DNA of 64,000 nucleotides from an uncultured Oscillospiraceae bacterium. Lineage in GTDB: Bacteria; Bacillota; Clostridia; Oscillospirales; Oscillospiraceae. The position numbers and the translations under genes were made by a program. This document shows, piece by piece, positions 37,163 through 64,000 of the stretch. The stretch spans positions 5,520-69,519 of the forward strand of contig CAYSDG010000002.1 of the NCBI GenBank assembly GCA_964429705.1, written 5' to 3'. The notes below the pieces were generated by a model. It ran no database searches, had not been told where the DNA came from, and saw only the letters and a program-made list of their open reading frames with translations. Numbering within the stretch: the stretch's first letter is position 1; each line of letters opens with the position of its first letter.

Positions 37163-38518
37163 TTAGCCTTTCCCGGTCAGGCACGCTTCATAGAAGTTTT
37201 TTGCAAAGGTGGGATTGGCATAAAAATGGAAGTGCGGGTATCCGGCATAGAGCCGCTTCGTGGCAACTGCGCAGTCCCACATCTTACCGTTGGACTTGGT
37301 GGCCGTGAAATCTCCACCGGGCTCTGTCGCATCCCAGTGGTGGAACTCATGGCCGCGGATCTCCTCCCCCGCCCGGCAGAGCAGGTTGTCCTTTTTGGCC
37401 CGCAGCGTCACGTAACCGAAGCGGGTCAGCTTTCCGTTGTCGAAGCTCTTTCCCGGCAGTGCCCCCACCATGGGACTATCGTGGATCGCCTGGGTCAGGT
37501 ACATGAAGCCGCCGCACTCGGCGATACAGGGCAACCCGTCCGCCAGGGCGGAGCGGATGGAGGCCAGCATCGAGTGGTTTTCGCCGAGCTGTTTTGCATA
37601 CAGCTCCGGATAGCCGCCCCCCAGATACAGCCCCTGGATCCCCTCCGGCAGCGCCTTGTCCGTCAGCGGACTGAAATCCACCAACTGCGCGCCCATATCC
37701 CGCAGGGCCTCCAGACTGTCCTCATAATAGAAGCAAAACGCCTTGTCGCGGGCGACAGCGATGCGTACCAGCGTATCGTACCGGGGCAGCACCACCGGCT
37801 CACAGCGCACCGGCGCGGCCCCAGCGGCCAACGCCAGCATGCCGTCCAGATCCAACGTCTTTTCCGCCTGTCGGGCCAGCGCCTGCAGCTTCTCCTTCAG
37901 CCCCACCACCTCCGCGGCGGTCACCAGGCCGAGGTGGCGGCTCTCCAGGGCGCAGTCCGCCATTCTGGGCAGGAAGCCCAGGGGGCGGACCCGTCCGCCG
38001 AACTGCTCCAGGATCGCGCCTGCCAGGGCCCGATAGGTGGGTTCGGTACACTGATTGAGGATCACACCGCAGATCGGATTGTCCGGTCGGAAGGTAAGAA
38101 AGCCCTGGATTGTGGCCAGAACAGAGAGGGAAGCCCCCTTGGCGTTGACGATCAGCACTGTGGGGCTGTCGATCACCTTGGACAACTCATAGGTGCTGGA
38201 GCGGGTGGTTGTCAGGGCCGTACCGTCGTAGTAGCCCATGGCGCCCTCGATGATGCTGACATCCAGCTGGGTGCTGTTTTTCGCCAGCAGATACCGGGCC
38301 GTATTCTCCGAGAAAAAGAAGAGGTCCAGATTGGCGCTCTTCGCGCCGATAATACGGCTGTGAAACATGGGGTCAATATAGTCCGGCCCGCTCTTAAAGG
38401 CATCGACCCGCAGCCCGCGGTCGACCAGGGCCTGCAGCACCGCGCAGGTGACCGTTGTCTTGCCGCAGCCGCTGCTGGTGCCTGTTAGAAGGATGCGGGG
38501 ACATGCCTGCTGCTCCAT
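37163..38518 (-). CDS. cbiA: Cobyrinate (or related tetrapyrrole) a,c-diamide synthase, CbiA/CobB/CfbB family
   Basis: N-terminal P-loop GTSSGCGKTTVTCAVLQAL, then SGPDYIDPMFH. C-terminal glutamine amidotransferase domain with CGGFMYL. Confidence 0.88.
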   Translation of the reverse strand: MEQQACPRILLTGTSSGCGKTTVTCAVLQALVDRGLRVDAFKSGPDYIDPMFHSRIIGAKSANLDLFFFSENTARYLLAKNSTQLDVSIIEGAMGYYDGTALTTTRSSTYELSKVIDSPTVLIVNAKGASLSVLATIQGFLTFRPDNPICGVILNQCTEPTYRALAGAILEQFGGRVRPLGFLPRMADCALESRHLGLVTAAEVVGLKEKLQALARQAEKTLDLDGMLALAAGAAPVRCEPVVLPRYDTLVRIAVARDKAFCFYYEDSLEALRDMGAQLVDFSPLTDKALPEGIQGLYLGGGYPELYAKQLGENHSMLASIRSALADGLPCIAECGGFMYLTQAIHDSPMVGALPGKSFDNGKLTRFGYVTLRAKKDNLLCRAGEEIRGHEFHHWDATEPGGDFTATKSNGKMWDCAVATKRLYAGYPHFHFYANPTFAKNFYEACLTGKG

Positions 38519-38530
38519 CTCAGCGCCTCC

Positions 38531-39289
38531 TTACAGATTCTTGCGGCGGATCACCACCACATTGGCAATAACCATGAATACCAGCGCATACAGTGCCAGG
38601 ACCAGCATGCTGACCAGGCTGGGTGCGCCGCCGTAGGCCATGCTGCGCAGTGCGCCGCTGGCGTGGGTCAGGGGCAGGATGCTGATGAGCAGCTCGATCA
38701 CATCCGGCACCCGGTCCAGCGGGAAGAAGGTGTTGCACAGGAAGGTCATGGGCAGGATCACATAGGTGGAGAAGCGGGACACGTCGGCGTGGGTCTTGGC
38801 CAGCACCGCCGCAGTGATACCCAGCGCCGCAAAGGCCAGGCCGTTGAGCAGCATCACCAGGAAGAAGGAGATACTCAGGTGGATATGCGCTCCAAAGGGG
38901 AGGGCCAGCAGCAGGATCAGCACGCCGCTGTACATGCCCCGCAGCGCGCCGCCCAGCATCTGGCCGAAGATATAGGCCGGCATGGGGGCGGGGGAGATGA
39001 TGATCTGGTCAAAGGACCGCTCAAAGATCCGCTGGATGTTCAGAGATGTTGCGATAGAGGAAAAACTGGTGTTCATGGTGGTCAGGGCGATAATGCCCGG
39101 CACCAGAAAGTCGATATAGGGCCGGTCGGTGACCGTGCTGGTGGAGCCGAGACCCCAGCCGAGAGCGATCATATACAGGAGCGGGCTGATGAGGGCGGCA
39201 ATGGTGATGCGCCGCCACTCAAACTTGAATTCCACCCATTTCTCCCACAGGACGGTCTCCACCGTGGTAAAAAACTTCTTGACCTTCAT
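38531..39289 (-). CDS. ABC-2-type transporter permease
   Basis: 252 aa, six hydrophobic segments. Its start overlaps the upstream ATPase stop by 4 nt. Confidence 0.8.
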   Translation of the reverse strand: MKVKKFFTTVETVLWEKWVEFKFEWRRITIAALISPLLYMIALGWGLGSTSTVTDRPYIDFLVPGIIALTTMNTSFSSIATSLNIQRIFERSFDQIIISPAPMPAYIFGQMLGGALRGMYSGVLILLLALPFGAHIHLSISFFLVMLLNGLAFAALGITAAVLAKTHADVSRFSTYVILPMTFLCNTFFPLDRVPDVIELLISILPLTHASGALRSMAYGGAPSLVSMLVLALYALVFMVIANVVVIRRKNL

Positions 39290-40137
39290 GCTTTCTCCCC
39301 CAATCCGCGGCCGACCACATTGAGGAACACATCCTCCAGCGTGGTGGAACGCATCGTGAACTTGTTTTTTATCCCCGCGGTGTAGGCAATGGCCTCCTCT
39401 TTCCCCGGGAAGAAGGCGCTTCGGGTGTGGTCGCCGTCAAATTCGTCGATGGCCACCTCGCCCAGCTCCCGGATCAGATTCTCCGGCGTATCCAGCCGCG
39501 CGGTCCGTCCCTTGTCGATGAGGGCGATGCGCTGACAGAGGGACTGCGCCTCCTCAATGTAGTGGGTGGTGAGCAGGACCGTCATCCCCTGCCGGTTCAG
39601 GATGCGCAGCATATCCCACATCTGCCGCCGGGATGCGGGATCCAGTCCGATAGTGGGCTCGTCCAGGATCAGGATCTCCGGCTCGGTCAGCAGCGCCCGA
39701 CACAGCATCAGCTTGCGCTTCATGCCGCCGGAGAGCTGCCGGGTGATCTTTTTCCGGTGCTCGATCAGGCCGCAGAACTCCAGCAGTTCCTCGCTGCGGC
39801 TGCGGATCTGCTGCCTGGGCACGTCGTAGTGCCGCCCCTGCAGCTCCATGATCTGGTCCATGTTCATGTCCAGACGCAGAGAGTTCTGCTGGGTGATCAG
39901 AGAAAATTTCCGCTTGATGTCTCCCCGCTGGCGTTTGAGCTCCTCGCCGTCCACAAACACCTTGCCCTCCGTGGGCAGCAGCAGGGTGGACAGCACGCTG
40001 ATGAGCGTGGTCTTGCCCGCGCCGTTAGGTCCCAGCAGTCCGAAGAACTCTCCGGACCCGATGGTCAGAGACACATCGTCCAGCGCCTTTGTGGTGGATT
40101 TGTCATAAATTTTTGTCACATGTTGAATATCGATCAT
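39286..40137 (-). CDS. ABC transporter ATP-binding protein (ABC-2/DrrA-like)
   Basis: Walker A GPNGAGKTT, signature LSGGMKRKL, Walker B ILILDEPT. Start ATG 40137 forms an ATGA overlap with the cobN stop. Confidence 0.88.
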   Translation of the reverse strand: MIDIQHVTKIYDKSTTKALDDVSLTIGSGEFFGLLGPNGAGKTTLISVLSTLLLPTEGKVFVDGEELKRQRGDIKRKFSLITQQNSLRLDMNMDQIMELQGRHYDVPRQQIRSRSEELLEFCGLIEHRKKITRQLSGGMKRKLMLCRALLTEPEILILDEPTIGLDPASRRQMWDMLRILNRQGMTVLLTTHYIEEAQSLCQRIALIDKGRTARLDTPENLIRELGEVAIDEFDGDHTRSAFFPGKEEAIAYTAGIKNKFTMRSTTLEDVFLNVVGRGLGEKA

Positions 40138-43100
40138 TGACTGACCTCCTCGATCGTTCCTTCTGCCTGCATATAGATGCTTCGCAGCCGCTGCAGCGTC
40201 TGCGCATCTGTCTCCCACATTCCCCGCTGATTGGCCTCCAGCAGCCGTTCGCTGACGCTGTGGACCGCCCAGCGGTTGACCTCCTCCATCCACTGACGGG
40301 TCTCCTCGTCAAAGAGGAAGGTCTCCGCAATGGACTGATACATCCAGTCCTCGGCCACCTCCGCCGTGGCATCCCAGCCAAAGAAGGTGTCCGTCGCCGT
40401 CGCGATCTCCTGCGCGCCCTTGAAGCCGTGGCGCTTGAGCCCCTCCAGCCACTTGGGGTTGAGAATGCGGCTGCGCATGATCCGCGCCGTCTCCTTTCCG
40501 ATGTCCCGCGTAACGGGCCGGTCCGGGTCATCGGTATGTCCGGTGACGGACATGGGCTTTTTCCCCGAGTTGGCGCGGACACAGGCCACCAGCCCTCCGT
40601 GATAGGCATAAAAATCGTCACTGTCCAGCATATCGTACTCGGCGGTACTCTCGTTTTTGATCGTGACCGCCACCGTGGACATCCGGCAGCGGAATGCCTC
40701 CGTGTGCTTTTCCCCGTGCGTGCGGGAGGAATAGCCGTAGCTGCTCCAGGTCTCAAACACCTGGGCCAGGTCCCGGAAATCCGTCCACTGCTTGCTGTCG
40801 ATGATCTTGGACACCGCCGTGCCATAGCAGCCGGGAGCGCAGCTATATACGCGGATATACGCCTGATCCAGCGCCTGCTCCTGGGGGATGCCCTGCTCCG
40901 TCAGCTTTTCCACATCCTCCCGCAGATGCTTTTTGATGTAGTTCATCTCATCCGGCTCATCCAGCGCGGCGACCTTTGTCACCGCCTGGTCCATCAGGCG
41001 GATCAGATTGGGGTACATATCCCGGAACAGGCCGGATATGCGCAGCGTCACATCCAGGCGCGGCCTGCCCAGCTCCTCCAGCGGGATCGGCTCCACGCCA
41101 AGCACCCGGGTCGTCTGTCCCAGATAGACCGGCCGCACGCCCATCAGATACAGGCACTCGGCCAGGTCCTCGCCGCATGTCTTCAGGGTGTTGCCTGCCC
41201 AGACCACCATAGCCGTGCTCTCGGGGTATCCTCCCTCCTGCTGGTCGTACTGGCTCAGCATTTGCTTCGCCATTTTGACGCCGATCTCCCAGGCGGCCCG
41301 GGAGGGGATCTGCGCCGGATCGCTGGCGTAAAAATTCCGGCCGGTGGGCAGGATAGATACGTTGCCCCGGGTGGGGTTGCCGCCCTGACCCGGTGGGACG
41401 AAGCCGCCGTTGGTCCCGGTGAGCAGGTTGTCCATCTCATCGGTGATGTGGTCCATCTTGTCCCTCACGACTTCGCACATGAACCGCAGGACCCGCCTGA
41501 CCTCCACAGCGGAGCCGATGAACCGCTCCGCCGCCACTACATCGGCCACGCTGTCGGCCGCAAAGTTCTGCTCCGCCAGCGCCGCCGTCATTCGACGCGC
41601 CGCCGCAATGGCGTTATCATAGACCATCAGGCCGGATATGCCGCCGAAATCCGCCGTGGGGCCGTCCTTCACCGCCTCCGGATCATAGCCCTGGGCAGTC
41701 AGGACACTGTCATTCAGCGACGGGATATTGCCGTTTCTGACCCGCAGCAGCATCCGCATCAGGTTCTGGTACAGCTTGCCCTCCGGCACCTTGCCAAAGA
41801 TGTGCAGTCCATCCTTAACCACAGAATTTTTCAGCTCGCCCATCCAGATGTGGATCGCCTCGATGGCTCCATCCGCATCCGACTGGAAGCTCTCCTCCGT
41901 CAGGTGCAGGTCCGTTGTCAGCTTTGCCTCCACCGCCAGGTCGAAAATGCGCCTTGCCAGCTGGGGGACCTGGGCGGGGCGGGCCTGCTTGGCCTGATGA
42001 TACTCCTTCAGAGCCTCATCGATCACCGCAAGATGCTCATAGGTCTCCGCCTCATCCAGAGACGGCGGCATATGGTCAACCACGACCGCCCAGCTTCTGC
42101 GCTTGGCCTGGATGCCCTCGCCGGTGATGCCGATATGATAGGGGTACAGGTGGGGCAGACTCCCCAGCGACGCGTCGGGATAGCAGTCTCTGCTGAGCCC
42201 GACCTCCTTGCCCGGCAGCCACTCCAGAGAGCCATGGGTGCCGATATGATAGACCGCGTTTGCCCCAAAGCACTCCTCCAGCCAGCAGTAGTAGGCCAGA
42301 TAGCTGTAGGGCGGCGTGGAATCCGTGCTGTGGTACAGGGCCGCCGCCCGCTCACCAAAGGCCCGGGAGGGCTGCAGACCAATAAAAATGTTGCCGTTGA
42401 CGATGCCGGGGATCAGCATTTTGCCGTCCTTGACCATCACCTCGCCCGGCACGCCGCCCCAGGTGTTTTCCAGCTCCCGCCGCATGGCATCGCTCAGCCC
42501 GCCGAACCAGCCGCTCCACACATCCTGCTCCACCACGGCGGCAGCCAGCCGTTCCATGGCCTCCGGCGAGGTCCACCGCAGATCATTGGTCAGCCCGGAC
42601 GTCAGGCGGTCAGCGATGTCCTGTCCACTTTCAAAATCAAACTCTGTCCGGAATCCCGCCGCCTGAAACCGCTGCACGATGCGGTGGACGCTCTCAAACG
42701 TATCCAGACCCTCGGCGCATCCGATCTTGGCGTTGCCGGGCATGGTGTTGAAGAGGATCGCCAGCTTTTTCTCCCCGTTGTCCATCCGCTTCAGCTTCGC
42801 CCAGTTGACCGCCAGCCGACAGACCCGGTCCGTCCGGTCCGGAATGGGCTGATACACCTTGCGCTCCACATCATCCTCCCGCACCAGCTCCTGGGCGCCG
42901 CCTGGGACGGTGATGATCTGGCCATCCAGCTCCGGCTGGAACACATAGATCGGCAGCGAGATCGGATCGATGCCCTGGGGCAGGAACCGATACTGCTCGC
43001 GGCTGTAGTAGGTGGTCATCACCTGCATGACAGGCACGTTCCACTCCTCAAAAATGCTGCGGAGGATCTCCTGCCTCCCATCCCCCGGCCCGCTCATGTG

Positions 43101-43880
43101 GGACAGGGAAAAGCCGGTCATGACCAGGATGCTGTGGGGCAGGCGCTTGTCGCCGCAGGTGAAGAACTTCTGCATCGCCGCACAGATCCCGCCATCCTGC
43201 TCGCCGTTGCCGGAGGTACGGGAAAACATTGGCAGCGCCAAGGCGCCCAGCTCCTGCAGCCGGTCGATCACCGCATCGATGTGGCGCGTATTGCCGTTGA
43301 TGACCTGGCTCTGGTGCAGGACAAGTCCCACCACGGGCCGGTCCCCCTCCGCCGCCTCGCGGCGCAGGGGCAGGCTCTCCGCCTCGTCCAGCATCCTGCC
43401 CTGCCAGTATAAGCCCATATCCAGTGGTGCCTTTGGCTCCGGAACGGCGCAGTCCACCCCAAAGTGGTTCCTGGCGATATAGAGCAGCAGCCCCCTGAAA
43501 TTGTCGGCAGTATTCAGTCGGAAATAGGCGCTGACCCCCCTGTACTCCTCCATTGTAAGGCCGGATGTGGGAAGAAACTCCGCAATCTCCTCCGGGAGGG
43601 AGGACTCAAAATACACCGGTATGCGCCTGGTCAGGCTCTGCCACATCTGGTGGAAATCCGGCAGACACTGCACGCTGCCGTGGAAATACACCACCGCAAA
43701 ATCGCTGACGGCCGCCTCCGCCATCATCCGCTCGACCTTTTCCGGGCATTCGCTCAGCTCCGCCACCGACCAGCAGCTTCCCTGCACCATGTCGGCATGC
43801 TCGCTTGCCAGCGCCCGGAATGCCCGGCGCATATTCCACAGACGGTCCTCTGTGGCCAGTAAACATATCACTCGTGCCAT
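40134..43880 (-). CDS. cobN: CobN/BchH-family large chelatase subunit, copy 1
   Basis: 1248 aa, colinear with copy 2 (blocks YHSTDSTPP.SYLA.Y.WL, H.GTHG.LEWLPGKE, ILNPKWL.GL.RHG.KGAQEI). Start moved to ATG 43880 (RBS AAGGGG), which aligns with the paralog N-terminus. Confidence 0.9.
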   Translation of the reverse strand: MARVICLLATEDRLWNMRRAFRALASEHADMVQGSCWSVAELSECPEKVERMMAEAAVSDFAVVYFHGSVQCLPDFHQMWQSLTRRIPVYFESSLPEEIAEFLPTSGLTMEEYRGVSAYFRLNTADNFRGLLLYIARNHFGVDCAVPEPKAPLDMGLYWQGRMLDEAESLPLRREAAEGDRPVVGLVLHQSQVINGNTRHIDAVIDRLQELGALALPMFSRTSGNGEQDGGICAAMQKFFTCGDKRLPHSILVMTGFSLSHMSGPGDGRQEILRSIFEEWNVPVMQVMTTYYSREQYRFLPQGIDPISLPIYVFQPELDGQIITVPGGAQELVREDDVERKVYQPIPDRTDRVCRLAVNWAKLKRMDNGEKKLAILFNTMPGNAKIGCAEGLDTFESVHRIVQRFQAAGFRTEFDFESGQDIADRLTSGLTNDLRWTSPEAMERLAAAVVEQDVWSGWFGGLSDAMRRELENTWGGVPGEVMVKDGKMLIPGIVNGNIFIGLQPSRAFGERAAALYHSTDSTPPYSYLAYYCWLEECFGANAVYHIGTHGSLEWLPGKEVGLSRDCYPDASLGSLPHLYPYHIGITGEGIQAKRRSWAVVVDHMPPSLDEAETYEHLAVIDEALKEYHQAKQARPAQVPQLARRIFDLAVEAKLTTDLHLTEESFQSDADGAIEAIHIWMGELKNSVVKDGLHIFGKVPEGKLYQNLMRMLLRVRNGNIPSLNDSVLTAQGYDPEAVKDGPTADFGGISGLMVYDNAIAAARRMTAALAEQNFAADSVADVVAAERFIGSAVEVRRVLRFMCEVVRDKMDHITDEMDNLLTGTNGGFVPPGQGGNPTRGNVSILPTGRNFYASDPAQIPSRAAWEIGVKMAKQMLSQYDQQEGGYPESTAMVVWAGNTLKTCGEDLAECLYLMGVRPVYLGQTTRVLGVEPIPLEELGRPRLDVTLRISGLFRDMYPNLIRLMDQAVTKVAALDEPDEMNYIKKHLREDVEKLTEQGIPQEQALDQAYIRVYSCAPGCYGTAVSKIIDSKQWTDFRDLAQVFETWSSYGYSSRTHGEKHTEAFRCRMSTVAVTIKNESTAEYDMLDSDDFYAYHGGLVACVRANSGKKPMSVTGHTDDPDRPVTRDIGKETARIMRSRILNPKWLEGLKRHGFKGAQEIATATDTFFGWDATAEVAEDWMYQSIAETFLFDEETRQWMEEVNRWAVHSVSERLLEANQRGMWETDAQTLQRLRSIYMQAEGTIEEVSQ

Positions 43881-43953
43881 CGTATTCCCCTTATACTTCC
43901 TGATTTGCTTTATTTTGCGGAGCACCTGATACAGGCCCCTGTGTCGGTGCCCC

Positions 43954-45093
43954 TCATTGGATCTTGATCAAATGCTCCGTTGTTACCTGTGCTGGGTCCT
44001 CGCTGGACAAAATGGCATACATGTCCGCCATAATGGCCGCAATATCCGCTGCTGACTGATGAAACGAGGGCGACGTCACCCAGACGCAGCCGCTCTGCAC
44101 CGCTTTAAAATCCAGAAACAGCGGATTATTCTCCACCATTTCGTCGATGGAATAAAATTTATCGGTAAAATTCATATAAAACAGGCAGTCGGCATCCTTG
44201 AACCGGGTATACCACTCCTCGAAGGTCATGGTGCTGTTGCCGCCCTTTTCCGGCTCCAGGTCGGCGCAGACATAGTCGCCGCCTGCCATTTCGATCAGCT
44301 GCGCGCAATAGTCGCCGCTGTTGCGGGCGTAGCACTTTTCTCCAGCCAGATAGCCCATGGCTACCGTTTTGCCGAGGGGCTCCTCCGCCCGCACGGCCTC
44401 CAGCAGGGCCGCCTGCTCGTCAAAATACCGCTGGGCCTCCTCCTCGAGATCCAGCAGCACCCCAAGCAGCTTGATCCACTCTACACGCCCCAGCGGGTGC
44501 GGCTCCTTGGAGGAATTCTCCACCAGCGTGGGGATCCCCAGCTCGTCAAACTTTTCCAGCACCTCCGGCTTGCTGTCCACCATGGTGTTGTTGATGTGAA
44601 GCTGGATCTGCTCCCCCACGATCATCTCATAGTTGGGCTGCGAAAACTTTCCGCCGAACCGGATCGTCCCCGCCTCCATGGCCTCCACCACATGCTCCAG
44701 GTACCAGCCGTCCACATCCGTCCCCACCAGCGGGACCCGGTCCAGCGCACCCAGCGCGTCCACAAGCGAGACGATGCTGGTGCTGGCGATATAGAGCCGG
44801 TCAATGGGGCGGCGCAGCACATATACGTCCCCGTCCAGCGCCTCCGGCTGCTCCACCCCCTCGGGCAGCACCAGATAGCGGTGCTCCCCGGTCCCAGCGG
44901 AGATCATGCGGGACCCGTCAGAAAAATATTCCACGGAAAAAAGCTCCGCGTATTCCAGGGGCATGAAGCCCAGGCTGGCGGGCAGGCCGTCCGCGGGGGC
45001 GGCTTGATCCGCCCCGTTTTCAGCTGCTATATTCCCGCAGGCCGCCAGCAGGCACATCAGTACCGCTGCCGCTGCTGCTGCATATTTTTTCAT
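43954..45093 (-). CDS. Lipoprotein, BtuF/FhuD-type (class 8) periplasmic binding protein
   Basis: Lipobox LLAAC|G. The domain is homologous to both halves of the 50074-52404 protein. Confidence 0.8.
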   Translation of the reverse strand: MKKYAAAAAAVLMCLLAACGNIAAENGADQAAPADGLPASLGFMPLEYAELFSVEYFSDGSRMISAGTGEHRYLVLPEGVEQPEALDGDVYVLRRPIDRLYIASTSIVSLVDALGALDRVPLVGTDVDGWYLEHVVEAMEAGTIRFGGKFSQPNYEMIVGEQIQLHINNTMVDSKPEVLEKFDELGIPTLVENSSKEPHPLGRVEWIKLLGVLLDLEEEAQRYFDEQAALLEAVRAEEPLGKTVAMGYLAGEKCYARNSGDYCAQLIEMAGGDYVCADLEPEKGGNSTMTFEEWYTRFKDADCLFYMNFTDKFYSIDEMVENNPLFLDFKAVQSGCVWVTSPSFHQSAADIAAIMADMYAILSSEDPAQVTTEHLIKIQ

Positions 45094-45150: not shown

Positions 45151-45197
45151 AAAAAAGAAACGGCCGCGGCAACAAAACTATGTTGCCGCGGCCGTTT
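45151..45197 (-). terminator. Second strong hairpin plus T-run in the leader, 58 nt upstream of the start codon
   Basis: Minus strand: AAACGGCCGCGGCAACA-tagttt-TGTTGCCGCGGCCGTTT followed by CTTTTTT. Confidence 0.55.
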
Positions 45198-45206: not shown

Positions 45207-45242
45207 AAAAAAATGCCTTGCTCCATAACTCGTGGAAGGCAT
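45207..45242 (-). terminator. Riboswitch 1 expression-platform terminator
   Basis: Minus strand: ATGCCTT...AAGGCAT followed by seven T. Confidence 0.7.
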
Positions 45243-45455
45243 ACCTCTTCAAGCAGGTCTTCTGACTTGCGCACACAAGAGAACTTCTCTCACATCCAGC
45301 TCTGCCTTCCCAGTTTCCCAGTGACTGACTTTCGTCAACGAGCGGGATGATTCAACGCTTACAGCGGCGGTACCGTCCGGGATTCACACCCGATTATCTA
45401 TTCTCCCCGACAGGCCCGAAGGCTGGCGGGACACTTGAATCATTCTATCCGATTG
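45243..45455 (-). promoter_or_regulatory. Cobalamin riboswitch 1 (leftward operon)
   Basis: Minus strand contains GGGGAGAATAGATAATCGGGTGTGAATCCCGGACGGTACCGCCGCTGTAAGCG (B12-box region), CACTGGGAAACTGGGAAGGC and AAGTCAGAAGACCTGC. Confidence 0.85.
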
Positions 45456-45463: not shown

Positions 45464-45492
45464 ATTATAATCTGCTTTTTGGATTTAGTCAA
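45464..45492 (-). promoter_or_regulatory. Promoter of the leftward B12-regulated operon
   Basis: Minus strand reads TTGACT, 17-nt spacer, TATAAT. Confidence 0.6.
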
Positions 45493-45561: not shown

Positions 45562-45590
45562 TTGACAAAAAAACAGCTTTTGTGTATGCT
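45562..45590 (+). promoter_or_regulatory. Promoter of the rightward B12-regulated operon
   Basis: TTGACA, 17-nt spacer, TATGCT. Confidence 0.6.
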
Positions 45591-45631
45591 TTGTCCTGAA
45601 CAGCGGATTTTTATGTCTGCCGGTCTGCTTT

Positions 45632-45790
45632 AAAATTTCATACAGACGGTTCAGGAGTAGGAAATCGGGTGAAAGTCCCGAGCGATCCGGTCACTGTAAT
45701 CGGCGAGCAAGCCGCAGTATGCCATTGCGAAAGCGAGAAGGCGCGGCAAGCGATGACCCGTAAGTCAGGAAGCCTGCCTGAAACGAATGA
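45632..45790 (+). promoter_or_regulatory. Cobalamin riboswitch 2 (rightward operon)
   Basis: GGTTCAGGAGTAGGAAATCGGGTGAAAGTCCCGAGCGATCCGGTCACTGTAATCGG, GCCATTGCGAAAGCGAGAAGGC and AAGTCAGGAAGCCTGCC. Confidence 0.85.
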
Positions 45791-45830
45791 TAGGCATCTT
45801 CCGAAGAAAGTATCCTGTTTGAGCAATAAG

Positions 45831-45893
45831 CCCCTGACCGTTTTCAGGGGATATTTCTGCGTCTGCTTCCTTTCGGGTGGCAGGCGTTTTTTT
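45831..45893 (+). terminator. Two consecutive hairpins after riboswitch 2; the second carries a T7 run
   Basis: CCCCTGA-ccgtt-TTCAGGGG at 45831-45850. CGTCTGC...GCAGGCG plus TTTTTTT at 45860-45893. Confidence 0.6.
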
Positions 45894-55500: not shown

Positions 55501-56323
55501 GGACTGCGAGCAGAACTTCATTAAAAAGCACAGCCAGCAGGAGATGGCCCGGCTGATGGCGGAGGGTCTCAGCGAAAACGATGCCGCCGAGCAGGCCAAT
55601 ATCCGCGTCTTCGGCTGTCCGGCAGGCACCTACGGCGCAGGCGTCAACAAGGCCATCCACAGCCGAAACTGGGAGAGCTGGGAGGACCTGAGCAGGTTAT
55701 ACACCCTCTGGGGCTGCCACGCCTACAGCAGCCGCTTCCATGGCCAGGCCATGCCGGACGCCTTCAACGCCCGGCTCTCCACCGTGGGCGTGACCATCAA
55801 AAACGAGTCCTCTGTGGAGGGCGATATGCTCGACAGCGACGACTACTACAGCTATCATGGCGGTCTGGCCGCCTGCGTGCGTGCCAACAGCGGCAAAAAG
55901 CCCCTGTCCATCGCCGGACAGACCGCTGACCCGGAGCGCCCGGAGACCACCGACATCGCCACCGAGATGGCCCGCGTCATGCGCAGCCGCATTCTGAACC
56001 CCAAGTGGCTGGCCGGGCTGCAGCGCCACGGCTACAAGGGCGCCCAGGAGATTTCCAGGACCTTCGATGTGTTCTTCGGCTGGGATGCCTCCACCGAGAT
56101 CGCTGAAAACTGGATGTACGACTCCATTGCCGAACAGTTCCTGCTGGACGAGGAGACCCGCCAGTGGATGGAGGAGGTCAATCCCGCCGCCGTCCACCAC
56201 ATGAGCGAGCGCTTTCTGGAGGCCAGCCAGCGGGGTATGTGGCAGGCTGACGAGCAGATGCTGCATGCCATTCAGCAGATTTACATCGCCGCCGAAGGAA
56301 ATATGGAGGATCTCTTCCAGTAA
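52565..56323 (+). CDS. cobN: CobN/BchH-family large chelatase subunit, copy 2
   Basis: 1252 aa, colinear with copy 1. RBS AAGGAGA upstream. Confidence 0.9.
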   Translation: MKRYLFVLMNEHRLWGVRKALDRLESQYPGEFAGRVYAAVDVNRDSALEAELLDWARECDMVVLTSHGSVQNLYCFTRLWKLIVGRCPIYFYSSMADEMAEMTPQLMLSPDAYRQLDSYYQAGEPEDMQHMILCAANLLWDCQYPLLPPTPPLKRGVYLRGLEMLPPEEEAAYKARMSAEARPVIGVLILDHYTKTGNMAHIDALLDAIEARGCVPYAIADTFSSDPKNRTGILYRMEQAYRREDGSAIPSALVASYGFSLTAMSGETQIAGVPPKSVFEAWDLPVIQAMTTYFSPQEYYEDIRGLDLVTIPFSVYQPEFDGQLISVPYAATVIDDEGRKVYRPLPDRVQRVAELAHRWAELRRKPLSEKRLAIIFHNMPPRNDTIGTAFGLDSPASVHHIVQELAANGLPLDHPFENGAEIIAQIQAAVTNDGQWLSPEAALQRAAATVDAGLYQQWFQRLNEDTRQQLVSSWGPAPGTVMVHENTIVIPGILNGNLFIGLQPLRSAPEKAEELYHSTDSTPPHSYLAFYRWLDEVFHADAVIHVGTHGTLEWLPGKEVGLSSGCYPDICIGGVPNLYIYNIDVLGEGIQAKRRSYACILDHLIPSMDESDTYGSLTDLDEAIDEYYHVVQARPEQTVETATRVLDLAEAQNIFTDLKTSREELEANLEAGIGRLHRWVSRIKTSMVRDGLHIYGQPPAGKLRDQLARLLVRIPNGSVPALNDSILLAQGWDPEALRQEPERIYPDGRTALRIQEGAVDAARRIVDALAEAGYDPTCIPAILAAEALPGSSAALRRVLTYLCSDVIPRLDQTTDEMRYLLAGAAGRFVPPLPGGCPSRGNVHILPTGRNFYSIDPSAIPSRAAWTIGQTLADQAIAAYQAQEDKDGPWPESMAMVVYSCAAMKTHGEDLAEAFALMGVRPVYLGESSKVVGVEPIPLEELGRPRIDVVLRISGLFRDTFPNLVELVERAVLAVAALDEDCEQNFIKKHSQQEMARLMAEGLSENDAAEQANIRVFGCPAGTYGAGVNKAIHSRNWESWEDLSRLYTLWGCHAYSSRFHGQAMPDAFNARLSTVGVTIKNESSVEGDMLDSDDYYSYHGGLAACVRANSGKKPLSIAGQTADPERPETTDIATEMARVMRSRILNPKWLAGLQRHGYKGAQEISRTFDVFFGWDASTEIAENWMYDSIAEQFLLDEETRQWMEEVNPAAVHHMSERFLEASQRGMWQADEQMLHAIQQIYIAAEGNMEDLFQ

Positions 56324-56344
56324 TCAGGAAAAGGAGGACACCTT

Positions 56345-58066: not shown

Positions 58067-59870
58067 GAAAGCCGCCGTGCAGCCGACCTTTTATCGTTAC
58101 ACCTATCAGCGCCGCTTCGGTCCCCACGACCGCGCCAAGGACAGCCGCGGCACCATGTGCCGCCTGCTCCCGTTCTATGCCGCCTGGTGGCGTCAGATCG
58201 CTGTGGTGATCCTGATTACCCTGTTCTCCACCGGCTTCTCGCTGGCCATTCCCTATCTGCTGGGGCAGGCCGTCGACCAGTTCGACCTGATGACCGGCGC
58301 TATCCACCAACAGCGGCTGATGCAGCTGGCGCTGTTGCTGCTTGGCTGCGTCATTTTGCAGGCCCTGTGCAATTTCGGCCGCCGGGGGCTCATGGAGACC
58401 ATCTCCCAGCGCATGGTGGAGGCGCTCCGAAGAGACTGCTTCTCCAAGTTGACCCGTCTGCCCCTCTCCTACTTTGGAAAGCACTCCCACGGCGATATTA
58501 TGAGCCGGCTGTCCAGCGATGCCGACAATGTCAGCGCCATGGTGGCGGAGACTGTGACCCGTCTGTGCCACAGCCTTCTGATGGTGGTCGGCTCGCTGGT
58601 AATGATGCTGACGCTCAATGTCCGGCTGACGCTGATCTTTCTGGTCACGGTACCCGTCATCCTGCTCTCCACCCGCGCCATCTCCCAGCAGAGCCGCAAA
58701 TACTACCGCCAGCAGGCCGCGGAGCTGGGCCGTGCCAATGCCATCGTGCAGGAGTACATCCGCAGCAGCCGCACCGTCAAGCTGTTCGATTACCGGGACA
58801 CGGTGATCGAGCAGTTCCACACCGCAAACCAGGCTCTCTGCTCCACCTCCATCAAGGCCCAGATCTGGTCCGGCTTTCTGACGCCTGTCGTCAGCATGAT
58901 CAACAACCTGGGCTTTGCTCTGCTGGCCTGTCTGGGCGGCGTGATGAGCTATCGCGGCAGTGTGGAGGTCTGGGTGGTCATCAGTCTGCTGGGGTATTCC
59001 AAGCAGTTGGGCTCCCCCCTCAACAGCATCGCTGCCCTGTTCTCCCTGGTGCAGCAGGCTCTGGCCGGCGCAGAGCGCCTTTTTGAGGTCATGGATGAGG
59101 AAGAGCAGGACACCGGCAGCTCCTCCGCCCAGCTGGCAGAGTCCGTAAAGGGCCAGGTGGTGTTCGATGACGTCAGCTTTGCCTATGAGCCGGGCCGCCC
59201 CATTCTGGATCACATCAGCTTCACTGCCCAGGCCGGAGAGACCGTCGCCTTCGTGGGGGAGACCGGCGCGGGCAAGACCACGCTGGTAAATCTGCTGACC
59301 CGCTTCTATGACCCGGACGAGGGCAGCATCCGGCTGGATGGGGTGCCGCTGAACAAATATCCCCGCCGCCAGCTGAACCGCTGCTTCTCCGTCGTTTTGC
59401 AGGACTCCGTCTTTTTCACCGGCACCGTGCTGGACAATCTGCGCTACGGCAGACCGGAGGCCACCGAGGAGGAGGTTGTGGAGGCCGCCAAGCTGGCCTG
59501 CGTCCACGATTTCATTCTCCGCCTGCCAAATGGCTACCACACGGAGATGACCGGCTCCGCCGGGGAATTCAGTCATGGCCAGCGCCAGCTGCTGGCCATG
59601 GCCCGGGCGCTGCTGTGTCAGGCCCAGATCCTGATCCTGGATGAGGCCACCAGCAACGTGGACACCATCACGGAAAAGCGCATTCAGCAGGCCACGCTGC
59701 AGCTGATGCAGGGTCACACCTGTTTCCTGATCGCCCACCGGCTGTCCACCGTCCGCAAGGCGGACCGGATCTATGTGATCGGCAGCGGCAGGATCCTGGA
59801 GAGCGGCACCCACGAGGAGCTGCTCTCCCGCCGGGGCGCTTATTGGAGCATGCTCAACAACCGGGAATAA
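58050..59870 (+). CDS. ABC transporter, fused permease/ATPase (exporter-type fold), subunit 2
   Basis: Walker A GETGAGKTT, degenerate signature FSHGQRQLL, Walker B LILDEATSNVD. Overlaps subunit 1 by 17 nt. Confidence 0.88.
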   Translation: MEKEDKKAAVQPTFYRYTYQRRFGPHDRAKDSRGTMCRLLPFYAAWWRQIAVVILITLFSTGFSLAIPYLLGQAVDQFDLMTGAIHQQRLMQLALLLLGCVILQALCNFGRRGLMETISQRMVEALRRDCFSKLTRLPLSYFGKHSHGDIMSRLSSDADNVSAMVAETVTRLCHSLLMVVGSLVMMLTLNVRLTLIFLVTVPVILLSTRAISQQSRKYYRQQAAELGRANAIVQEYIRSSRTVKLFDYRDTVIEQFHTANQALCSTSIKAQIWSGFLTPVVSMINNLGFALLACLGGVMSYRGSVEVWVVISLLGYSKQLGSPLNSIAALFSLVQQALAGAERLFEVMDEEEQDTGSSSAQLAESVKGQVVFDDVSFAYEPGRPILDHISFTAQAGETVAFVGETGAGKTTLVNLLTRFYDPDEGSIRLDGVPLNKYPRRQLNRCFSVVLQDSVFFTGTVLDNLRYGRPEATEEEVVEAAKLACVHDFILRLPNGYHTEMTGSAGEFSHGQRQLLAMARALLCQAQILILDEATSNVDTITEKRIQQATLQLMQGHTCFLIAHRLSTVRKADRIYVIGSGRILESGTHEELLSRRGAYWSMLNNRE

Positions 59871-59880
59871 GTAAAACAAA

Positions 59881-59922: not shown

Positions 59923-59953
59923 ATAAACCCTGTAACGGGTCTTATCAAATTTT

Positions 59954-61897
59954 TTATCGCTCCAGCGCTGACAGGACTGTGCGGCTTTTCACGATAGACT
60001 GCAGCTGCTCCGCCTTCAGGTCATCTACCTTGTAGTAGACAGCACCCATGGCCTCCGCCAGCTGCCGGGCAATGTGCAGAGAGATGAAATCCTTCTCCGT
60101 GTCCACCACGACGGTATGGATATGATCCTGCCGGATCAGCTCTGCCGCCCGCATGGCATCCGCCACCGCGTCCTCCGTCCAGAGAGTGCGGTTGGCACGG
60201 CCATCGGTGACCAGTACCAGCATGGGCAGCAGTTCCGGGTCCTTCAGCCGACGTGCCTTCAGCAGCTGCCAGGACTGGTACAGTCCCGCCGCCAAGGGCG
60301 TGCGCCCGCCGGTGGGCAACTGCTGCAGCTTCTTCTGTGCCAGGTCCACGCTGGCGGTGATGTCCAGCAGCGTCTCAGCGCCCTCCCTGCGGAAGGCCAC
60401 CAGGCCGATGCGATCCCGCTTCTGATAGGAGTCCAGCAGCATGGAGAGAATGGCCTCCTTGGCTGCCTTCATGCGCTGCTGCGCCCCCATGGAGCCGCTG
60501 GCATCCGCGGCAAAGACGATGGTCGCCCCCACGTGGTCCTCCCGCACCTTGTAGCGCAGATCACTGTCCCGCAGCGCCACCACACAGTCGGTGTGGTCCC
60601 GCTGGCGCTGGTACGGAGCCGCCACCCGGAGTGTGGCATCCAGCGCCAGATCGTGCTGCCGGGGCGTGGGGTGGGCTGTAAAGGAAGCATAGCGCCCCTT
60701 GTTGGCGCCGCTTTTGGTCTTGCTGCGGCGGCCGCTGCCCTGCCGCAGCAACCGGTCACGGGGGATGGACGGGATCAGCGACAGCAGGGCGACCTCCTCG
60801 CCATCCACCAACTGCTCCTCCGGAGCGACCCCGTTGCCGCTTTCCTGCTGCTCTGGCGGTGGTGTCTCGATCTCCTCGCCGTCGTTCCCCTCCTGCTCCT
60901 CATAGCTTGGCTGTGGAGGGGGCGGCTGGTCAGACTGCCCCTCCTCCGGCGGCGTATTTTCCTGCTGGTCGCCGTCGCGGTCCTGCTCCGGCGGCTCCTG
61001 CTGCTGGTCCTGCTGCTGTTGCTCCGGCGGCATCTCCTCCGGCAGAGGGGCATCCTCCCGTCGGCGGTGGGGCAGCACATAGATAGCTGCCTCCTTCAGA
61101 TCCTCCGCCGTGATGTAGTCCCGGCCATTCCAGGCCGCCACGGCGGCGGCTGTACGGATCAGCACAACCTCGCAGCGGTTGCCCTCCGCCCCCGCCTGCT
61201 GGGCATACTGCCCCGCCAGGCGGCGGACCGACTCGTCCACAGCCACATCCTCGACCAGACATTTTGCCCGGGCCACCTGCTGGGCCAGCGCGTCGCTCTC
61301 ACTCTGCCACTTTTGGCAGAATGCCGCCGGATCCCGCTCATACTCCATGCGCCGCCGGATGATCTCCGTGCGGTTTTCCAGATCCGGCTCGCCCACCACC
61401 TCTACATACAGGCCGAAGCGGTCCAGAAACTGGGGGCGCAGCTTTCCCTCCTCAGGATTCATGGTACCCACCAGCACAAAGCGGCAGTCATGGCGGAAGG
61501 AGATGCCCTCCCGCTCCACCAGATTCTCGCCGCTGGCCGCGGCACAGATCAGCGTACTGACGATACCATCCGGTAGCAGGTTCACCTCGTCCACATACAG
61601 GATATTGTTGTGGGCCCGCTGCAGTACGCCGCCGGAGAAGGCGCGCACCCCCTCCTTGACAGCCCGCTCAAAGTCGATGGCACCTACCAGCATATCCTCT
61701 GTGATGCTCAGGGGCAGATCCACTACCTTCTGAGCGGTCAAAGCCGCCAGGCCGCGAACGATGGTGGACTTTGCCGTCTCCTTCTCGCCGCACAGCAGCA
61801 CACCGCCGATCCGCGGCTCGATCAGATTGTACAGCAGGGCCCGCTTGACCTGCTCCTGTCCCACGATGGCGGCAAAGGGGTATCTGCGGTCACCCAT
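59954..61897 (-). CDS. ChlD/BchD/CobT-like chelatase subunit (AAA+ N-domain, acidic Pro/Gln-rich linker, C-terminal VWA domain)
   Basis: [18 protein letters not shown]-terminus and linker [21 protein letters not shown].... VWA/MIDAS context [10 protein letters not shown] and [10 protein letters not shown]. Start ATG 61897 overlaps the chlI-like stop by 8 nt. Confidence 0.88.
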
Positions 61898-62897
61898 TGA
61901 GCACACTCTCCCAGTCCGTGGGCAAACCATCGGTGGTGTCAAAGGGCATGCGGCGCATGCGGTGGGTCAGCACCATGGGGGCCACCCGGATCAGATGGTC
62001 CCGCCCGGCCTCCGCCGCCCCCTCGAAGGCGGCCAGTGTGCAGGCGGCCTTCAGCAGCGTGATGTCTGCCCGGTGGCCGTCCACCTGCAGCGTCACGCCG
62101 ATCTTGGCCGCGTCGCGGTACAGGCTCTCCGGGATGACAACGGTGTGCAGGCGGCGCTGCGCAGCCTCCAGTTTGTCCCGCAGGGCCTGCTGCTGGCCAT
62201 CCCACTGGCGGCAGAAGGCCGCCGGATCGCTCTCATAGTCCATGCGGCGGCGGATCAGCTCACTGCGCATGGCCAGATCCTGCTCGCCCCGGATCTCCAC
62301 CACCAGCCCGAAGCGGTCCAGCAGCTGGGGGCGCAGGTCGCCCTCCTCGGGGTTCATGGTACCCACCAGCACAAAGCGGGCAGGGTGGGAATAGCTGACG
62401 CCCTCGCGCTCCACGGTGTTGACGCCCATGGCCGCACTGTCCAGCAGCACATCCACGATGTGGTCGTCCAGCAGATTGATCTCATCCACGTAGAGAATAT
62501 TGCCGTTGGCCTGGGCCAGCAGGCCTGGCTCAAAGACCTTTTCGCCCTTTTTGATGGCCTGCTCCATGTTCAGGGAGCCAACCACGCGGTCCTCGGTGGA
62601 GCTGACAGGCAGCTCCACTACCCGGCGGGTGTAGGGGATAGTCTTGAACTGCCCCTGCTTCTCCCGGCAGGAGGCGCAGAGTTCCCCGCTGTCGGGGCGG
62701 CAGTGGAAGGGGCAACCCTCCACCACCTCCACCTGCTCCATCAGGTCGGTCAGGCCGCGCACCGCCGTGGATTTGGCGGTGCCCTTCTCGCCCCGGATCA
62801 ATACGCCGCCCAGTGCCGGATTGATGAGATTCAGCATCAGCGCCAGCTTCATCTGCTCCTGCCCAACAATGGCGGTAAACGGATAATTATGCTCCAT
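61890..62897 (-). CDS. ChlI/BchI-type AAA+ chelatase ATPase subunit
   Basis: [16 protein letters not shown], Walker [10 protein letters not shown], Walker [28 protein letters not shown]. Confidence 0.9.
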
Positions 62898-62900
62898 ATG

Positions 62901-64000
62901 TTACTTCTCCTCCTGTGTATCTGCCCACGCTCTCCAGCCGGAGTAAACGGGGATCCCCTGTTCTTTTGCCAGCGCCAGCAGGCGGCCGTTATATTGATTC
63001 AGTTCCCCAATGGGGGCGCCAGCGTCTATGACCTCCCGGCATTGCTTCAGCATGTCGGCCGCCGCCTGATAGTCGCTCTCGTCCATAGGCTCAAAGGCGG
63101 ATGCAGTCAGCACATGGTCGCTGAGCTCCAGGGCCACCTGACAGTCCACATCGTTTTCAAATAGGATGCCGGTGGCAAAGGGTACCTGCCGCTTTTGCAG
63201 CGTGCGGTAGCAGGGAATACCATAGCCGTTACCGCCGATGACGAACACCTGCGGTTCTCCCATCGGCTTTGTCAGCTCCGTGCTGCCGAACAGCAGGTTA
63301 TAGGAGCCGTGCTTGATGTCATACAGCTTATCGATGGCGTCGCCTGCAAAAATATCCTCCGGCGGACCGAAGGCAGCGATGGTATCGCCCTTCACGCACA
63401 GCAGATAGTCGGATATTTTTGTGGCCAGATCGATCTCGTGCAGAGACATGATGACCGTGATGTTCTTATCGTGGGCCATCTCCCGCAGGATGTCCAGCAG
63501 CTCGATCTTGTGGCGGATGTCCAGATAGGCCGTAGGCTCGTCCAGAACGATGACCTCCGGCTCCTGGGCGATGGCTCTGGCCAGCATAACGCGCTGGCGC
63601 TGTCCATCGGACAGCGTGGTGAAATCCCGGTCAGCCAGATCCAGGGCGTGGACGCGCCGAAGCGCCTCTGTAACGATCTCCCGGTCCTGGTCCGTCATCT
63701 TGCCCATGGCGTTGGTATAGGGGGAGCGGCCCATGGCCACCACCTCCTCGCAGGTCATCAGCTCCGGGCGAATGCGGTCTGTCAGCATGACCGCCACCTG
63801 CCGGGCCATCTCCTTGGCAGACCAGCTGTAGATCTCATGCCCCGCGATATGGACTGTACCCTTGATCTTGGCCAAATGGCGGGTGATGGATTTCAGGATG
63901 GTGGATTTTCCCGCGCCGTTGGGGCCGATCAGCGTCAGGATCCGCCCCTGCTCGATGTCGATATTGATGTCGTGGATCAGGATATTGCCGTGGTAGCCAA
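62901..64000 (-). CDS. ABC ATPase of the FepC/BtuD (iron-siderophore/B12 importer) type with an extra ~130-aa C-terminal domain; N-terminus outside window
   Basis: The frame stays open upstream of the track start, and hand translation of 63876-63998 gives ...LIGPNGAGKST... (Walker A). Also LSDGQRQRV and VIVLDEPTAYLD. The C-terminal domain is of unknown type. Confidence 0.85.
   Translation of the reverse strand, partial: GYHGNILIHDINIDIEQGRILTLIGPNGAGKSTILKSITRHLAKIKGTVHIAGHEIYSWSAKEMARQVAVMLTDRIRPELMTCEEVVAMGRSPYTNAMGKMTDQDREIVTEALRRVHALDLADRDFTTLSDGQRQRVMLARAIAQEPEVIVLDEPTAYLDIRHKIELLDILREMAHDKNITVIMSLHEIDLATKISDYLLCVKGDTIAAFGPPEDIFAGDAIDKLYDIKHGSYNLLFGSTELTKPMGEPQVFVIGGNGYGIPCYRTLQKRQVPFATGILFENDVDCQVALELSDHVLTASAFEPMDESDYQAAADMLKQCREVIDAGAPIGELNQYNGRLLALAKEQGIPVYSGWRAWADTQEEK

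Follow-up and report, generated by a model that had tools for sequence, protein, structure and literature searches.

What would a nitrogenase-like enzyme do when its genes are switched by vitamin B12? The question is raised by a 64,000-nucleotide (nt) stretch of DNA from an uncultured Oscillospiraceae bacterium (assembly GCA_964429705.1, contig CAYSDG010000002.1, positions 5,520 to 69,519), here called the window, in which a nitrogenase-like four-gene set lies behind a cobalamin riboswitch and among genes for CobN-type chelatases and corrinoid-type transporters. The four genes were named nflD, nflK, nflH and nflB in this analysis; coordinates are window positions, and the cluster under study spans 37163-64000. 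We put at about even the chance that the region is a vitamin-B12-starvation island, fused from a chelatase/uptake module and NflDKHB, in which Nfl, where intact, would be an ATP-driven reductase.

A 2026 review counts what the still uncharacterised nitrogenase-like clades do among the main open problems of the field, gene context having been of little help so far (PMC13474568). The Nfl clade has a clear physiological handle, namely a B12 riboswitch in most lineages and a co-transcribed importer. Here, we report the decay of the nitrogenase-like genes in this organism, the occurrence of their intact relatives in other Clostridia, and the partners and possible substrates of the encoded enzyme.

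Leaders and lesions of nflDKHB in the window

Two divergent matches to RF00174 (gathering score, 31.5 bits) were found, with model positions 1-189 covered. On both strands a promoter is followed by an aptamer, a hairpin and a start codon, which bears out the two back-to-back promoters and two cobalamin-riboswitch leaders proposed in a preliminary description of this DNA. The leaders and the four genes are as follows.

45562-45590, plus strand: promoter-like site, sigma-70-like, TTGACA-17-TATGCT (10/12 consensus matches)
45604-45795, plus strand: cobalamin riboswitch aptamer, rightward (RF00174, 84.1 bits, E 3e-19)
45831-45850, plus strand: hairpin with a weak T-run in the rightward leader, candidate attenuator
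45924..47192, plus strand: nflD (NifD/E-like), deletion allele with a TTG start and an AAAGGAG ribosome-binding site (PF00148)
47190..48378, plus strand: nflK (NifK/N/E-like) pseudogene (1-nt frameshift near 47765; in-frame TAG at 48103-48105)
48375..49160, plus strand: nflH (NifH-like Fe protein), intact (PF00142, 324 bits)
49157..49954, plus strand: nflB (NifB-type radical S-adenosylmethionine [SAM] core), intact (TIGR01290, 279 bits; cut-off, 343)
45464-45492, minus strand: promoter-like site, sigma-70-like, TTGACT-17-TATAAT (11/12 consensus matches)
45235-45453, minus strand: cobalamin riboswitch aptamer, leftward (RF00174, 72.7 bits, E 5.5e-16, full-length model)
45158-45197, minus strand: terminator-like GC-rich hairpin of 17 bp followed by a T-run, probably the expression platform of the leftward leader

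The stop/start overlaps reported earlier for the nif-like set were recovered as ATGA at the nflD/K, K/H and H/B junctions. nflH encodes the Walker A motif GKGGIGKST and both cluster cysteines and scores below every NCBIfam equivalog cut-off. Compared with an intact allele of 501 amino acids (aa; P0002), the window NflD is 100% identical outside an in-frame 237-bp deletion that removes 79 aa (residues 253-331), among them six family-invariant residues (W255, A256, M259, T265, G278 and G281). The deletion junction (46675-46681) is flanked by imperfect direct repeats, CTGGTC(C/T)GCCGCG. nflK, which is intact in other lineages (~393-410 aa), is broken here into three open reading frames (ORFs) by the frameshift and the TAG. 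The NifD/E- and NifK/N-like genes described before this analysis are therefore right as to family, while nflK is not an open gene and nflD is short of the deleted residues.

Indel errors are possible in metagenome-assembled contigs, and isolated frameshifts occur in a few other nfl loci, so the frameshift, TAG and deletion might be assembly or sequencing artefacts that leave the genes intact in the cell. This is very improbable, given that the nflK frameshift is present in each related Logan contig that reaches the site (six contigs of separate sequencing runs, L002 to L007), the TAG in the four of sufficient length, and the nflD deletion in five of six. The deletion is in frame, lies between direct repeats and is polymorphic, nflD being intact in the L002 contig, which is otherwise 99.99-100% identical to the window. 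Because the same lesions recur in independent short-read assemblies, we regard them as real and as belonging to this lineage. A pyrrolysine reading of the TAG was ruled out by the upstream frameshift in the same gene and by the limitation of the lesions to this lineage. Judged from their reading frames, the catalytic genes nflD and nflK are inactivated in this genome, and only the chelatase module (CobN/ChlID/BtuF/ABC/CbiA) can still be predicted to function. With its nitrogenase-like part decaying, this organism is a poor model for Nfl.

Spread, control and placement of the Nfl family

A word-index search with NflD returned 115 relatives, nearly all of ~500 aa; when 1.84 billion representatives were searched exhaustively with a profile, 98 matched below 1e-30. 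Scanning of metagenomes yielded 80 nfl loci, most of them from the human gut; a scan of GTDB species genomes with the window NflD gave L001 as the sole locus, the window's own genome lying outside that collection. At 85% NflD identity, 92 loci fell into 28 lineages, and L096 and L097 bring the number to ~30 (counts drawn from metagenome contigs of uneven length). Organism identities are sparse source labels, which name Limivivens, Oscillospiraceae, Flavonifractor plautii, Marvinbryantia and Peptococcaceae (metagenome-assembled genomes of Clostridia).

The gene order is D-K-H-B in all but two lineages, and nflD, nflK, nflH and nflB are each a single intact frame in most loci, which argues that the family is under selection outside the window's lineage. 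Isolated nflK or nflH frameshifts were seen elsewhere (L008:11503-12703, L052, L056, L026, L027 and L045); some of these loci are low-coverage contigs, and L008 is a polished long-read contig. A different order was seen in L072 and L078, where the riboswitch is followed by nflB, FecCD and BtuD and then by nflH, nflD and nflK. In L040 (1067-6064), copies of nflH and nflB lie upstream of a second riboswitch and nflDKH, which suggests tandem nfl operons.

Rfam placed cobalamin riboswitches upstream of the nfl arrays in L002, L008, L009 and L010, and a profile built from these four was used for a wider search. It found a riboswitch upstream of the nfl-containing array in 77 of 92 loci, or in 18 of the 21 lineages with enough upstream sequence. 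The link first drawn in the window between the nif-like set and the B12/tetrapyrrole economy is upheld by this conservation. The commonest human-gut lineage (52 loci) has a divergent riboswitch pair as in the window, with a leftward unit of three paralogues of a family-5 substrate-binding protein (SBP) plus permeases and ATPases, and additional riboswitches govern nearby BtuFCD-type genes. In L015, L059 and L065, the riboswitch drives nflDKHB alone.

Two further RNA features were noted. A Clostridiales-1 small RNA (RF01699, 108.9 bits) lies at L009:3250-3418, ~1 kb upstream of the riboswitch-controlled importer-nfl operon. A cobalamin-riboswitch-like match (nhmmer, 59.5 bits) at L011:14833-14970 precedes MeaB and two genes for methylmalonyl-CoA mutase subunits (L011:15357-20829); this is a B12-dependent enzyme, for which repression by B12 is unexpected.

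Placement of the family was based on NCBIfam scores, PDB sequence and fold searches, and the exhaustive profile search. The best-scoring counterparts of NflH were nitrogenase Fe proteins (251-253 bits), followed by MarH (225-236) and BchL/ChlL (170-185), and with NCBIfam models NflH reached 341 bits for nifH (cut-off, 394), 322 for CfbC (402), 214 for BchL (345) and 164 for BchX (331). NflD/K reached 67-90 bits with NifE models (cut-off, 505), 41 with CfbD (268) and 51 with BchB (490). All Nif, Vnf and Anf models were missed by far, and no curated NCBIfam model was reached by Nfl. In the NflD profile search, relatives closer than ~130 bits were all unnamed, and the first named family was NifEN. 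The AlphaFold model of NflD (predicted local distance difference test score, 85) has NifD, MarD and NifE as nearest neighbours (TM score, ~0.5-0.55), with no subunit of dark-operative protochlorophyllide oxidoreductase (DPOR) in its top 50 structural neighbours.

One alpha-type P-cluster cysteine of three is kept in NflD (C52 in GPxGC), together with a family-specific invariant cysteine (C174 in KGCGF); Arg or Lys stands at the position aligned with NifD Cys275, and there is no equivalent of His442. NflK keeps all three cysteines (C7, C32 and C90). A pattern of three plus one cysteines is that of the bridging [4Fe-4S] cluster of NifEN (in DPOR, with an aspartate) and not that of the P-cluster. 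The predicted four-cysteine site of NflDK is typical of this bridging type. NflB has the motifs HPCF, CNIQCxFC (CxxxCxxC) and CRQCRADA (CxxCRADA) and eight invariant cysteines, on which grounds we take it as a genuine NifB core. The preliminary description had called the NifB-like maturase unexpected; NifB homologues are in fact commonly colocalised with group IV nitrogenase-like clusters (PMC13474568).

Several known systems resemble Nfl in part. NifEN is the nearest named relative by profile and sequence, has the same 3+1 bridging site and accepts the NifB product; it differs from Nfl by the wide gap between score and cut-off, by a nif context that Nfl lacks, and by the place of the three-cysteine subunit, which in Nfl is the second (K-position) gene. 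MarBHDK (methylthio-alkane reductase, group IV-C) is the same four-gene set including a NifB-type maturase, and NflD has an alpha-type fold with a Foldseek match to 9d9u/9fmg. The Mar order is B-H-D-K, MarDK has six P-cluster cysteines plus Cys270/His429 for [Fe8S9C] where NflDK has four cysteines and no Cys270 equivalent, and NflD matches MarD at 59 bits over the N-terminal 100 residues only. Mar is tied to sulfur metabolism and Nfl to B12. CfbCD (group IV-B) shares with Nfl a NifH-type ATPase and a NifD-type catalytic protein tied to tetrapyrrole genes, a CbiA-family synthase and a chelatase. CfbD, however, forms a homomer and has neither a K subunit nor a NifB, for both of which the Nfl operon has genes, and the F430 pathway is archaeal, uses a class II chelatase (CfbA) and has no B12 riboswitch; in the window, the CbiA-type protein stays below the CfbB cut-off (349 bits; cut-off, 560), and the CfbC and CfbD scores given above fall short likewise.

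Group VI nitrogenase-like (NFL) proteins of Elusimicrobia, compared by description, likewise have at most four of six P-cluster cysteines, no iron-molybdenum cofactor ligands and a tetrapyrrole-related gene context, but they lack NifB and their NflH is sister to BchL/BchX, whereas NifB is present here and NflH is nearer to NifH/CfbC. They are uncharacterised, with a proposed role in tetrapyrrole cofactor synthesis (PMC13474568). The cut-offs of BchL, BchX and BchB, standing for DPOR and chlorophyllide oxidoreductase (COR; group V), are all missed by Nfl. IsrBHDK (group IV-F) was set apart by description, IsrB being BciD-like and not NifB-like, whereas NflB is NifB-type and no sulfonate genes were seen. 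As it fits none of Mar, Cfb, Isr, group V and group VI, Nfl was treated as an unassigned group-IV-type clade. Judged by these scores and motifs, NflDKHB is a distinct, uncharacterised nitrogenase-like family, in line with the earlier view that the module belongs to no characterised one.

Transport partners and the chelatase module

nflDKHB usually stands beside five genes for an ABC importer of the family-5 SBP (Opp/Dpp/Nik) type. In many cases a stop/start overlap couples translation of the importer genes to that of nflD, so that nine genes form an operon under a single riboswitch. This arrangement, with an intact nflK and no CobN, is that of the closest relatives of the window nflD (73% and 65% identity). 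Structural neighbours of the family-5 SBP are first of all peptide and oligosaccharide binders, with NikZ at just 47 bits. BtuFCD-type genes stand next to nfl in at least 11 lineages. In L010 (Peptococcaceae), hemA, hemC, cobA-hemD, hemB, hemL and sirC lie directly upstream of nfl and four BtuF-like genes downstream. A conserved 300-aa protein with no Pfam or NCBIfam match is encoded between sirC and the riboswitch-nflD unit in two Peptococcaceae loci (L010:8571-9473 and L071:1209-2100).

CobN/ChlID genes share an operon with nfl in two of ~30 lineages, the window's and that of L076. The latter is a single tight array, CobN-ChlI-ChlD-x-BtuF-FecCD-BtuD-NflD-K-H-B, whose NflD is 44% identical to that of the window. 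The co-occurrence thus extends beyond this genome, and the refutation named in the preliminary description, co-occurrence in this genome alone, does not apply. Even so, CobN/ChlID is not the regular partner of Nfl that it had seemed from the window, and CbiA, which had been part of the proposed scheme, adjoins nfl at none of the loci examined outside the window. Between ChlD and BtuF of L076 (6486-7061), a conserved 191-aa protein with no Pfam or NCBIfam match is encoded.

Around nflDKHB, the window holds the genes below (domain and family calls by Pfam and NCBIfam models, equivalog cut-offs beside the scores). All gene families named in the preliminary description were found again by these searches.

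37163..38518, minus strand: CobB/CbiA-type a,c-diamide synthase, last gene of the leftward operon (NF002204 CobB, 448 bits; cut-off, 254)
38531..39289, minus strand: ABC-2 type permease (Pfam ABC2_membrane, 85 bits)
39286..40293, minus strand: ABC-2 (DrrA-like) ATPase (ABC_tran, 113 bits; TIGR01188 drrA subfamily, 254 bits)
40134..43925, minus strand: CobN paralogue 1, class I chelatase large subunit (PF02514, 1160 bits)
43954..45093, minus strand: BtuF-like substrate-binding lipoprotein 1, lipobox LLAAC (Peripla_BP_2, 74 bits)
50074..52404, plus strand: tandem double BtuF-like lipoprotein, 776 aa, lipobox LLSAC (Peripla_BP_2 in two stretches, 147 bits)
52565..56323, plus strand: CobN paralogue 2 (PF02514, 1173 bits; TIGR02257 CobN, 861 bits; cut-off, 822)
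56345-58066 and 58050-59870, plus strand: heterodimeric exporter-fold ABC pair (ABC_membrane and ABC_tran in each)
59954..61942, minus strand: ChlD-like subunit, AAA+ plus VWA (TIGR02442 putative cobaltochelatase, 681 bits; cut-off of 779 missed)
61890..62897, minus strand: ChlI-like AAA+ subunit (BchI-ChlI, 424 bits; cut-off of 467 missed)
62901..64000, minus strand: BtuD/corrinoid-type ABC ATPase, ORF continuing past the window edge (Walker A GPNGAGKS at ~63.9 kb)

By domain architecture, a class I chelatase subunit set is present (CobN/BchH-family protein, ChlI-type AAA+ and ChlD-type AAA+/VWA). CobN paralogue 1, whose start is likely Met16 (near 43880), passes the TIGR02257 CobN cut-off (873 bits; cut-off, 822) and fails that of BchH (717 bits; cut-off, 829). 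The two CobN paralogues are 48% identical, and each adjoins a BtuF-like lipoprotein gene; lipoprotein 1 shares 34-40% identity with either half of the tandem double protein, and a sequence search of the PDB gave no relative of the BtuF-like SBP. The CbiA-type protein has the Pfam domains GATase_3, AAA_26 and CbiA. An N-terminal truncation of the ATPase at the right edge was ruled out, its ORF leaving the window with an intact Walker A. This BtuD-type ATPase has a C-terminal extension of ~130-150 aa, as do those at L093:16123-17322 and L094:13207-14451; the extension is Pfam MJ0874 in L093 and L094, and among NCBIfam models the ATPase comes closest to PRK09536, an archaeal-type corrinoid ABC ATPase.

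The gene set recalls CobNST and BchHID in that the CobN cut-off is passed and ChlI/ChlD-type AAA+/VWA partners are clustered with corrinoid-type ABC genes. It differs from CobNST in that the carriers are anaerobes with otherwise early cobalt insertion (CbiK in L095) and in that the window has two CobN paralogues. Corrinoid-type transporters, CbiZ, CobN and Mg-chelatase subunits also make up operon-2 of Dehalobacter restrictus, described in a study of corrinoid starvation (PMC4285132). Another likeness is to HmuS/BtuS, heme de-chelatases of Bacteroidota, which are CobN-family proteins beside tetrapyrrole uptake genes in gut anaerobes; HmuS removes iron from heme in a reductant-dependent reaction (PMC12583661). 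HmuS exceeds 1400 aa, is membrane-anchored and is ATP-independent, whereas the window CobNs are of ~1250 aa, lack evident membrane anchors, have ChlI/ChlD as partners and exceed the cut-off of the CobN model.

Homologues of CobN2 are abundant, certain clusters having more than 1000 member sequences. They belong in part to a recurrent nfl-free module, ChlI-ChlD-CobN-(SPASM radical SAM)-BtuF-FecCD-BtuD-exporter pair (L093 to L095), in which the exporter-fold ABC pair follows BtuFCD in L093 and L094 as well. The riboswitch profile matched upstream of ChlI strongly in L094 (78 bits), weakly in L093 (29 bits) and not in L095, so that two of the three loci examined had a match. This ChlID-CobN-BtuFCD-exporter set is an independent, widespread module separate from Nfl, and as the nfl and chelatase modules each stand alone elsewhere, we read the window as a fusion of two B12-regulon modules.

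In one array of L095 (5488-15784), two CobN genes (1056 and 1251 aa) occur with an ABC-2 ATPase, a permease and a gene for a CbiK-like sirohydrochlorin cobaltochelatase (206 bits, below the equivalog cut-off of 400 bits), so that genes of a class I and a class II chelatase seem to stand in one operon. As in window 38531-43925, CobN is followed in L095 by the ABC-2 ATPase and then by the ABC-2 permease. The radical SAM genes beside CobN (L094:9873-10967 and L095:8637-9671) were considered as NifB-like and rejected, being SPASM-type with 24% identity to NflB; their nearest models are PapB, NirJ2 and AhbD (heme d1/heme b type).

Possible substrates, alternative readings and flanking DNA

Module A is a class I chelatase and uptake set (two CobN, ChlI/ChlD, BtuF-like proteins, the BtuD-type ATPase, the exporter pair and the ABC-2 pair), joined here by CobB/CbiA. 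Module B is NflDKHB, with a NifH-type ATPase/reductase, a D/K heteromer and a NifB-type maturase. In the proposed reading, module B of this lineage would have lost its usual family-5 SBP importer; it now lies between the riboswitch and the BtuF-CobN-exporter genes, and its catalytic genes have decayed. When adenosylcobalamin is scarce, the riboswitch leaders would be read through; intact NflH would pass low-potential electrons, driven by ATP, to NflDK, which would reduce a compound imported by the co-transcribed transporter. That compound would most likely be a metallo-tetrapyrrole, a corrinoid or a cobalt chelate, the aim being cobalt or corrin availability, and in some lineages Nfl would work alongside a CobN/ChlID (de)chelatase.

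Taken alone, a role of Nfl in cobalt or corrinoid (tetrapyrrole) supply has, in our estimate, slightly less than an even chance. It is favoured by the L076 operon, which unites chelatase, Btu and Nfl genes, and by the repeated BtuFCD-type adjacency together with the hem/sirC genes of L010. It is favoured further by the B12-riboswitch-preceded NikABCDE-family transporters of Clostridium tetani and Desulfitobacterium hafniense, for which cobalt uptake is predicted (PMC2667541) and which resemble the nfl-linked importer as clostridial family-5 SBP ABC systems preceded by a B12 riboswitch. Tetrapyrroles are the substrates of three characterised nitrogenase-like enzymes (DPOR, COR and CfbCD; PMC13474568), a precedent that points the same way as the reductant need of HmuS. 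A fuller proposal, that NflDKHB is the first nitrogenase-like enzyme of the B12 regulon and an ATP-driven NifB-cluster reductase of an imported metallo-tetrapyrrole, corrinoid or cobalt chelate that, in some lineages together with a CobN/ChlID (de)chelatase, recovers cobalt or a corrin precursor under B12 scarcity, is tentative and rather unlikely to hold in every part.

Several points weigh against a supply role. A complex cluster made by NifB is typical of reducers of small molecules (nitrogenase, Mar), and to our knowledge the known tetrapyrrole reducers have no NifB. The family-5 SBPs are closer to peptide/oligosaccharide binders than to NikA or NikZ. The rarity of CobN/ChlID beside Nfl (2 of ~30 lineages) means that shared regulation alone could explain their meeting. 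L001, L057 and L068 have no riboswitch in the available upstream sequence by the profile search, and Rfam at a lower threshold gave no cryptic leader RNA in the first two of these either.

The main rival reading takes NflDKHB as a B12-independent bypass enzyme, following the logic of metE and nrd, that lies near CobN and Btu genes merely through shared repression by B12; one version has a Mar-/Isr-like reductive C-S cleavage of imported organosulfur compounds to methanethiol, and from this methionine without MetH. There is precedent for B12-independent isoenzymes under B12 riboswitches (PMC7689651), a B+H+D+K set with a true NifB resembles Mar-type small-molecule systems (PMC12552129, PMC13474568), and the riboswitch that drives nflDKHB alone in several lineages, the absence of CobN from ~28 of 30 lineages and the usual importer, with its structural likeness to binders of peptides, sugars or cysteine-related ligands, would all suit it. 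NflDK, however, has neither the full six P-cluster cysteines nor the counterpart of Cys270 on which MarDK relies, and the likeness of NflD to MarD is confined to the short N-terminal match; an Rfam scan of 12 loci turned up no SAM or T-box leader and no RNA element of another kind, and the tight CobN-ChlID-BtuFCD operon of L076 and the hem/sirC neighbours in L010 also speak against a bypass. We judge the bypass unlikely, with a minority share of the probability that is still appreciable.

The preliminary description itself had favoured one integrated pathway working in this organism (uptake, CbiA amidation, CobN/ChlID metalation and Nfl reduction, in the manner of CfbA-B-CD). All the enzyme classes are indeed present under B12 riboswitches, and L076 unites chelatase, Btu and Nfl genes, but for this genome the pathway is contradicted by the inactivation of both catalytic nitrogenase-like genes (nflK a pseudogene, nflD short of 79 conserved residues). 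With CbiA beside nfl at no other locus examined, the closest nfl relatives devoid of CobN, the CobN module abundant without nfl, and the CfbB, CfbC and CfbD models far below cut-off, we regard it as improbable. A role of the nif-like genes in nitrogen fixation, as a nitrogenase or as a cofactor scaffold resembling NifEN, hardly deserves credence: the best matches of NflH are nitrogenase Fe proteins, NifE/NifEN is the nearest named relative of NflD, and NifB is present, but NifD Cys275 and His442 have no equivalents, four of six P-cluster cysteines are kept, the Nif, Vnf and Anf models are far from reached, no other nif genes occur in any locus, and control is by a B12 riboswitch and not by nitrogen.

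Our literature search found no work linking nitrogenase-like enzymes with a cobalamin riboswitch, CobN or cobamides, many subscription papers lying outside the search; one apparent match for the link concerned rnfA and not nitrogenase. Desulfitobacterium hafniense has extra nifHDK-like operons that are linked to ABC transporters and suspected of roles other than nitrogen fixation; they are possible members of the Nfl family. Earlier reports kept the B12-riboswitch transporters and the transporter-linked nif-like operons unconnected. As Nfl is common in human-gut Clostridia, simple experiments with and without B12 are possible. If Nfl acts on corrinoids, tetrapyrroles or cobalt, it would add a step to the competition of gut bacteria for B12; a corrinoid or cobalt reductase would extend the corrinoid economy by a new branch and the nitrogenase superfamily by a new class of reaction, and a B12-sparing bypass would make Nfl a new kind of B12-independent enzyme.

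The start of the cluster at 37163, as first described, was kept because its left-hand neighbours (thioredoxin, MatE, pyruvate kinase) have no relation to it. The thioredoxin gene (36461-36883, minus strand) is on the same strand as CbiA and 280 nt downstream of it. Farther left, G+C falls to ~52% at 28000-32000, against ~61% elsewhere in the window; the dip covers a BspA-type leucine-rich-repeat protein of 1301 aa (28998-32903), and this low-G+C stretch may be surface-protein DNA gained by horizontal transfer. A tRNA of 89 nt (10503-10591, minus strand; Rfam, 56.8 bits) has a long variable arm and the anticodon loop GGA, which suggests tRNA-Ser.

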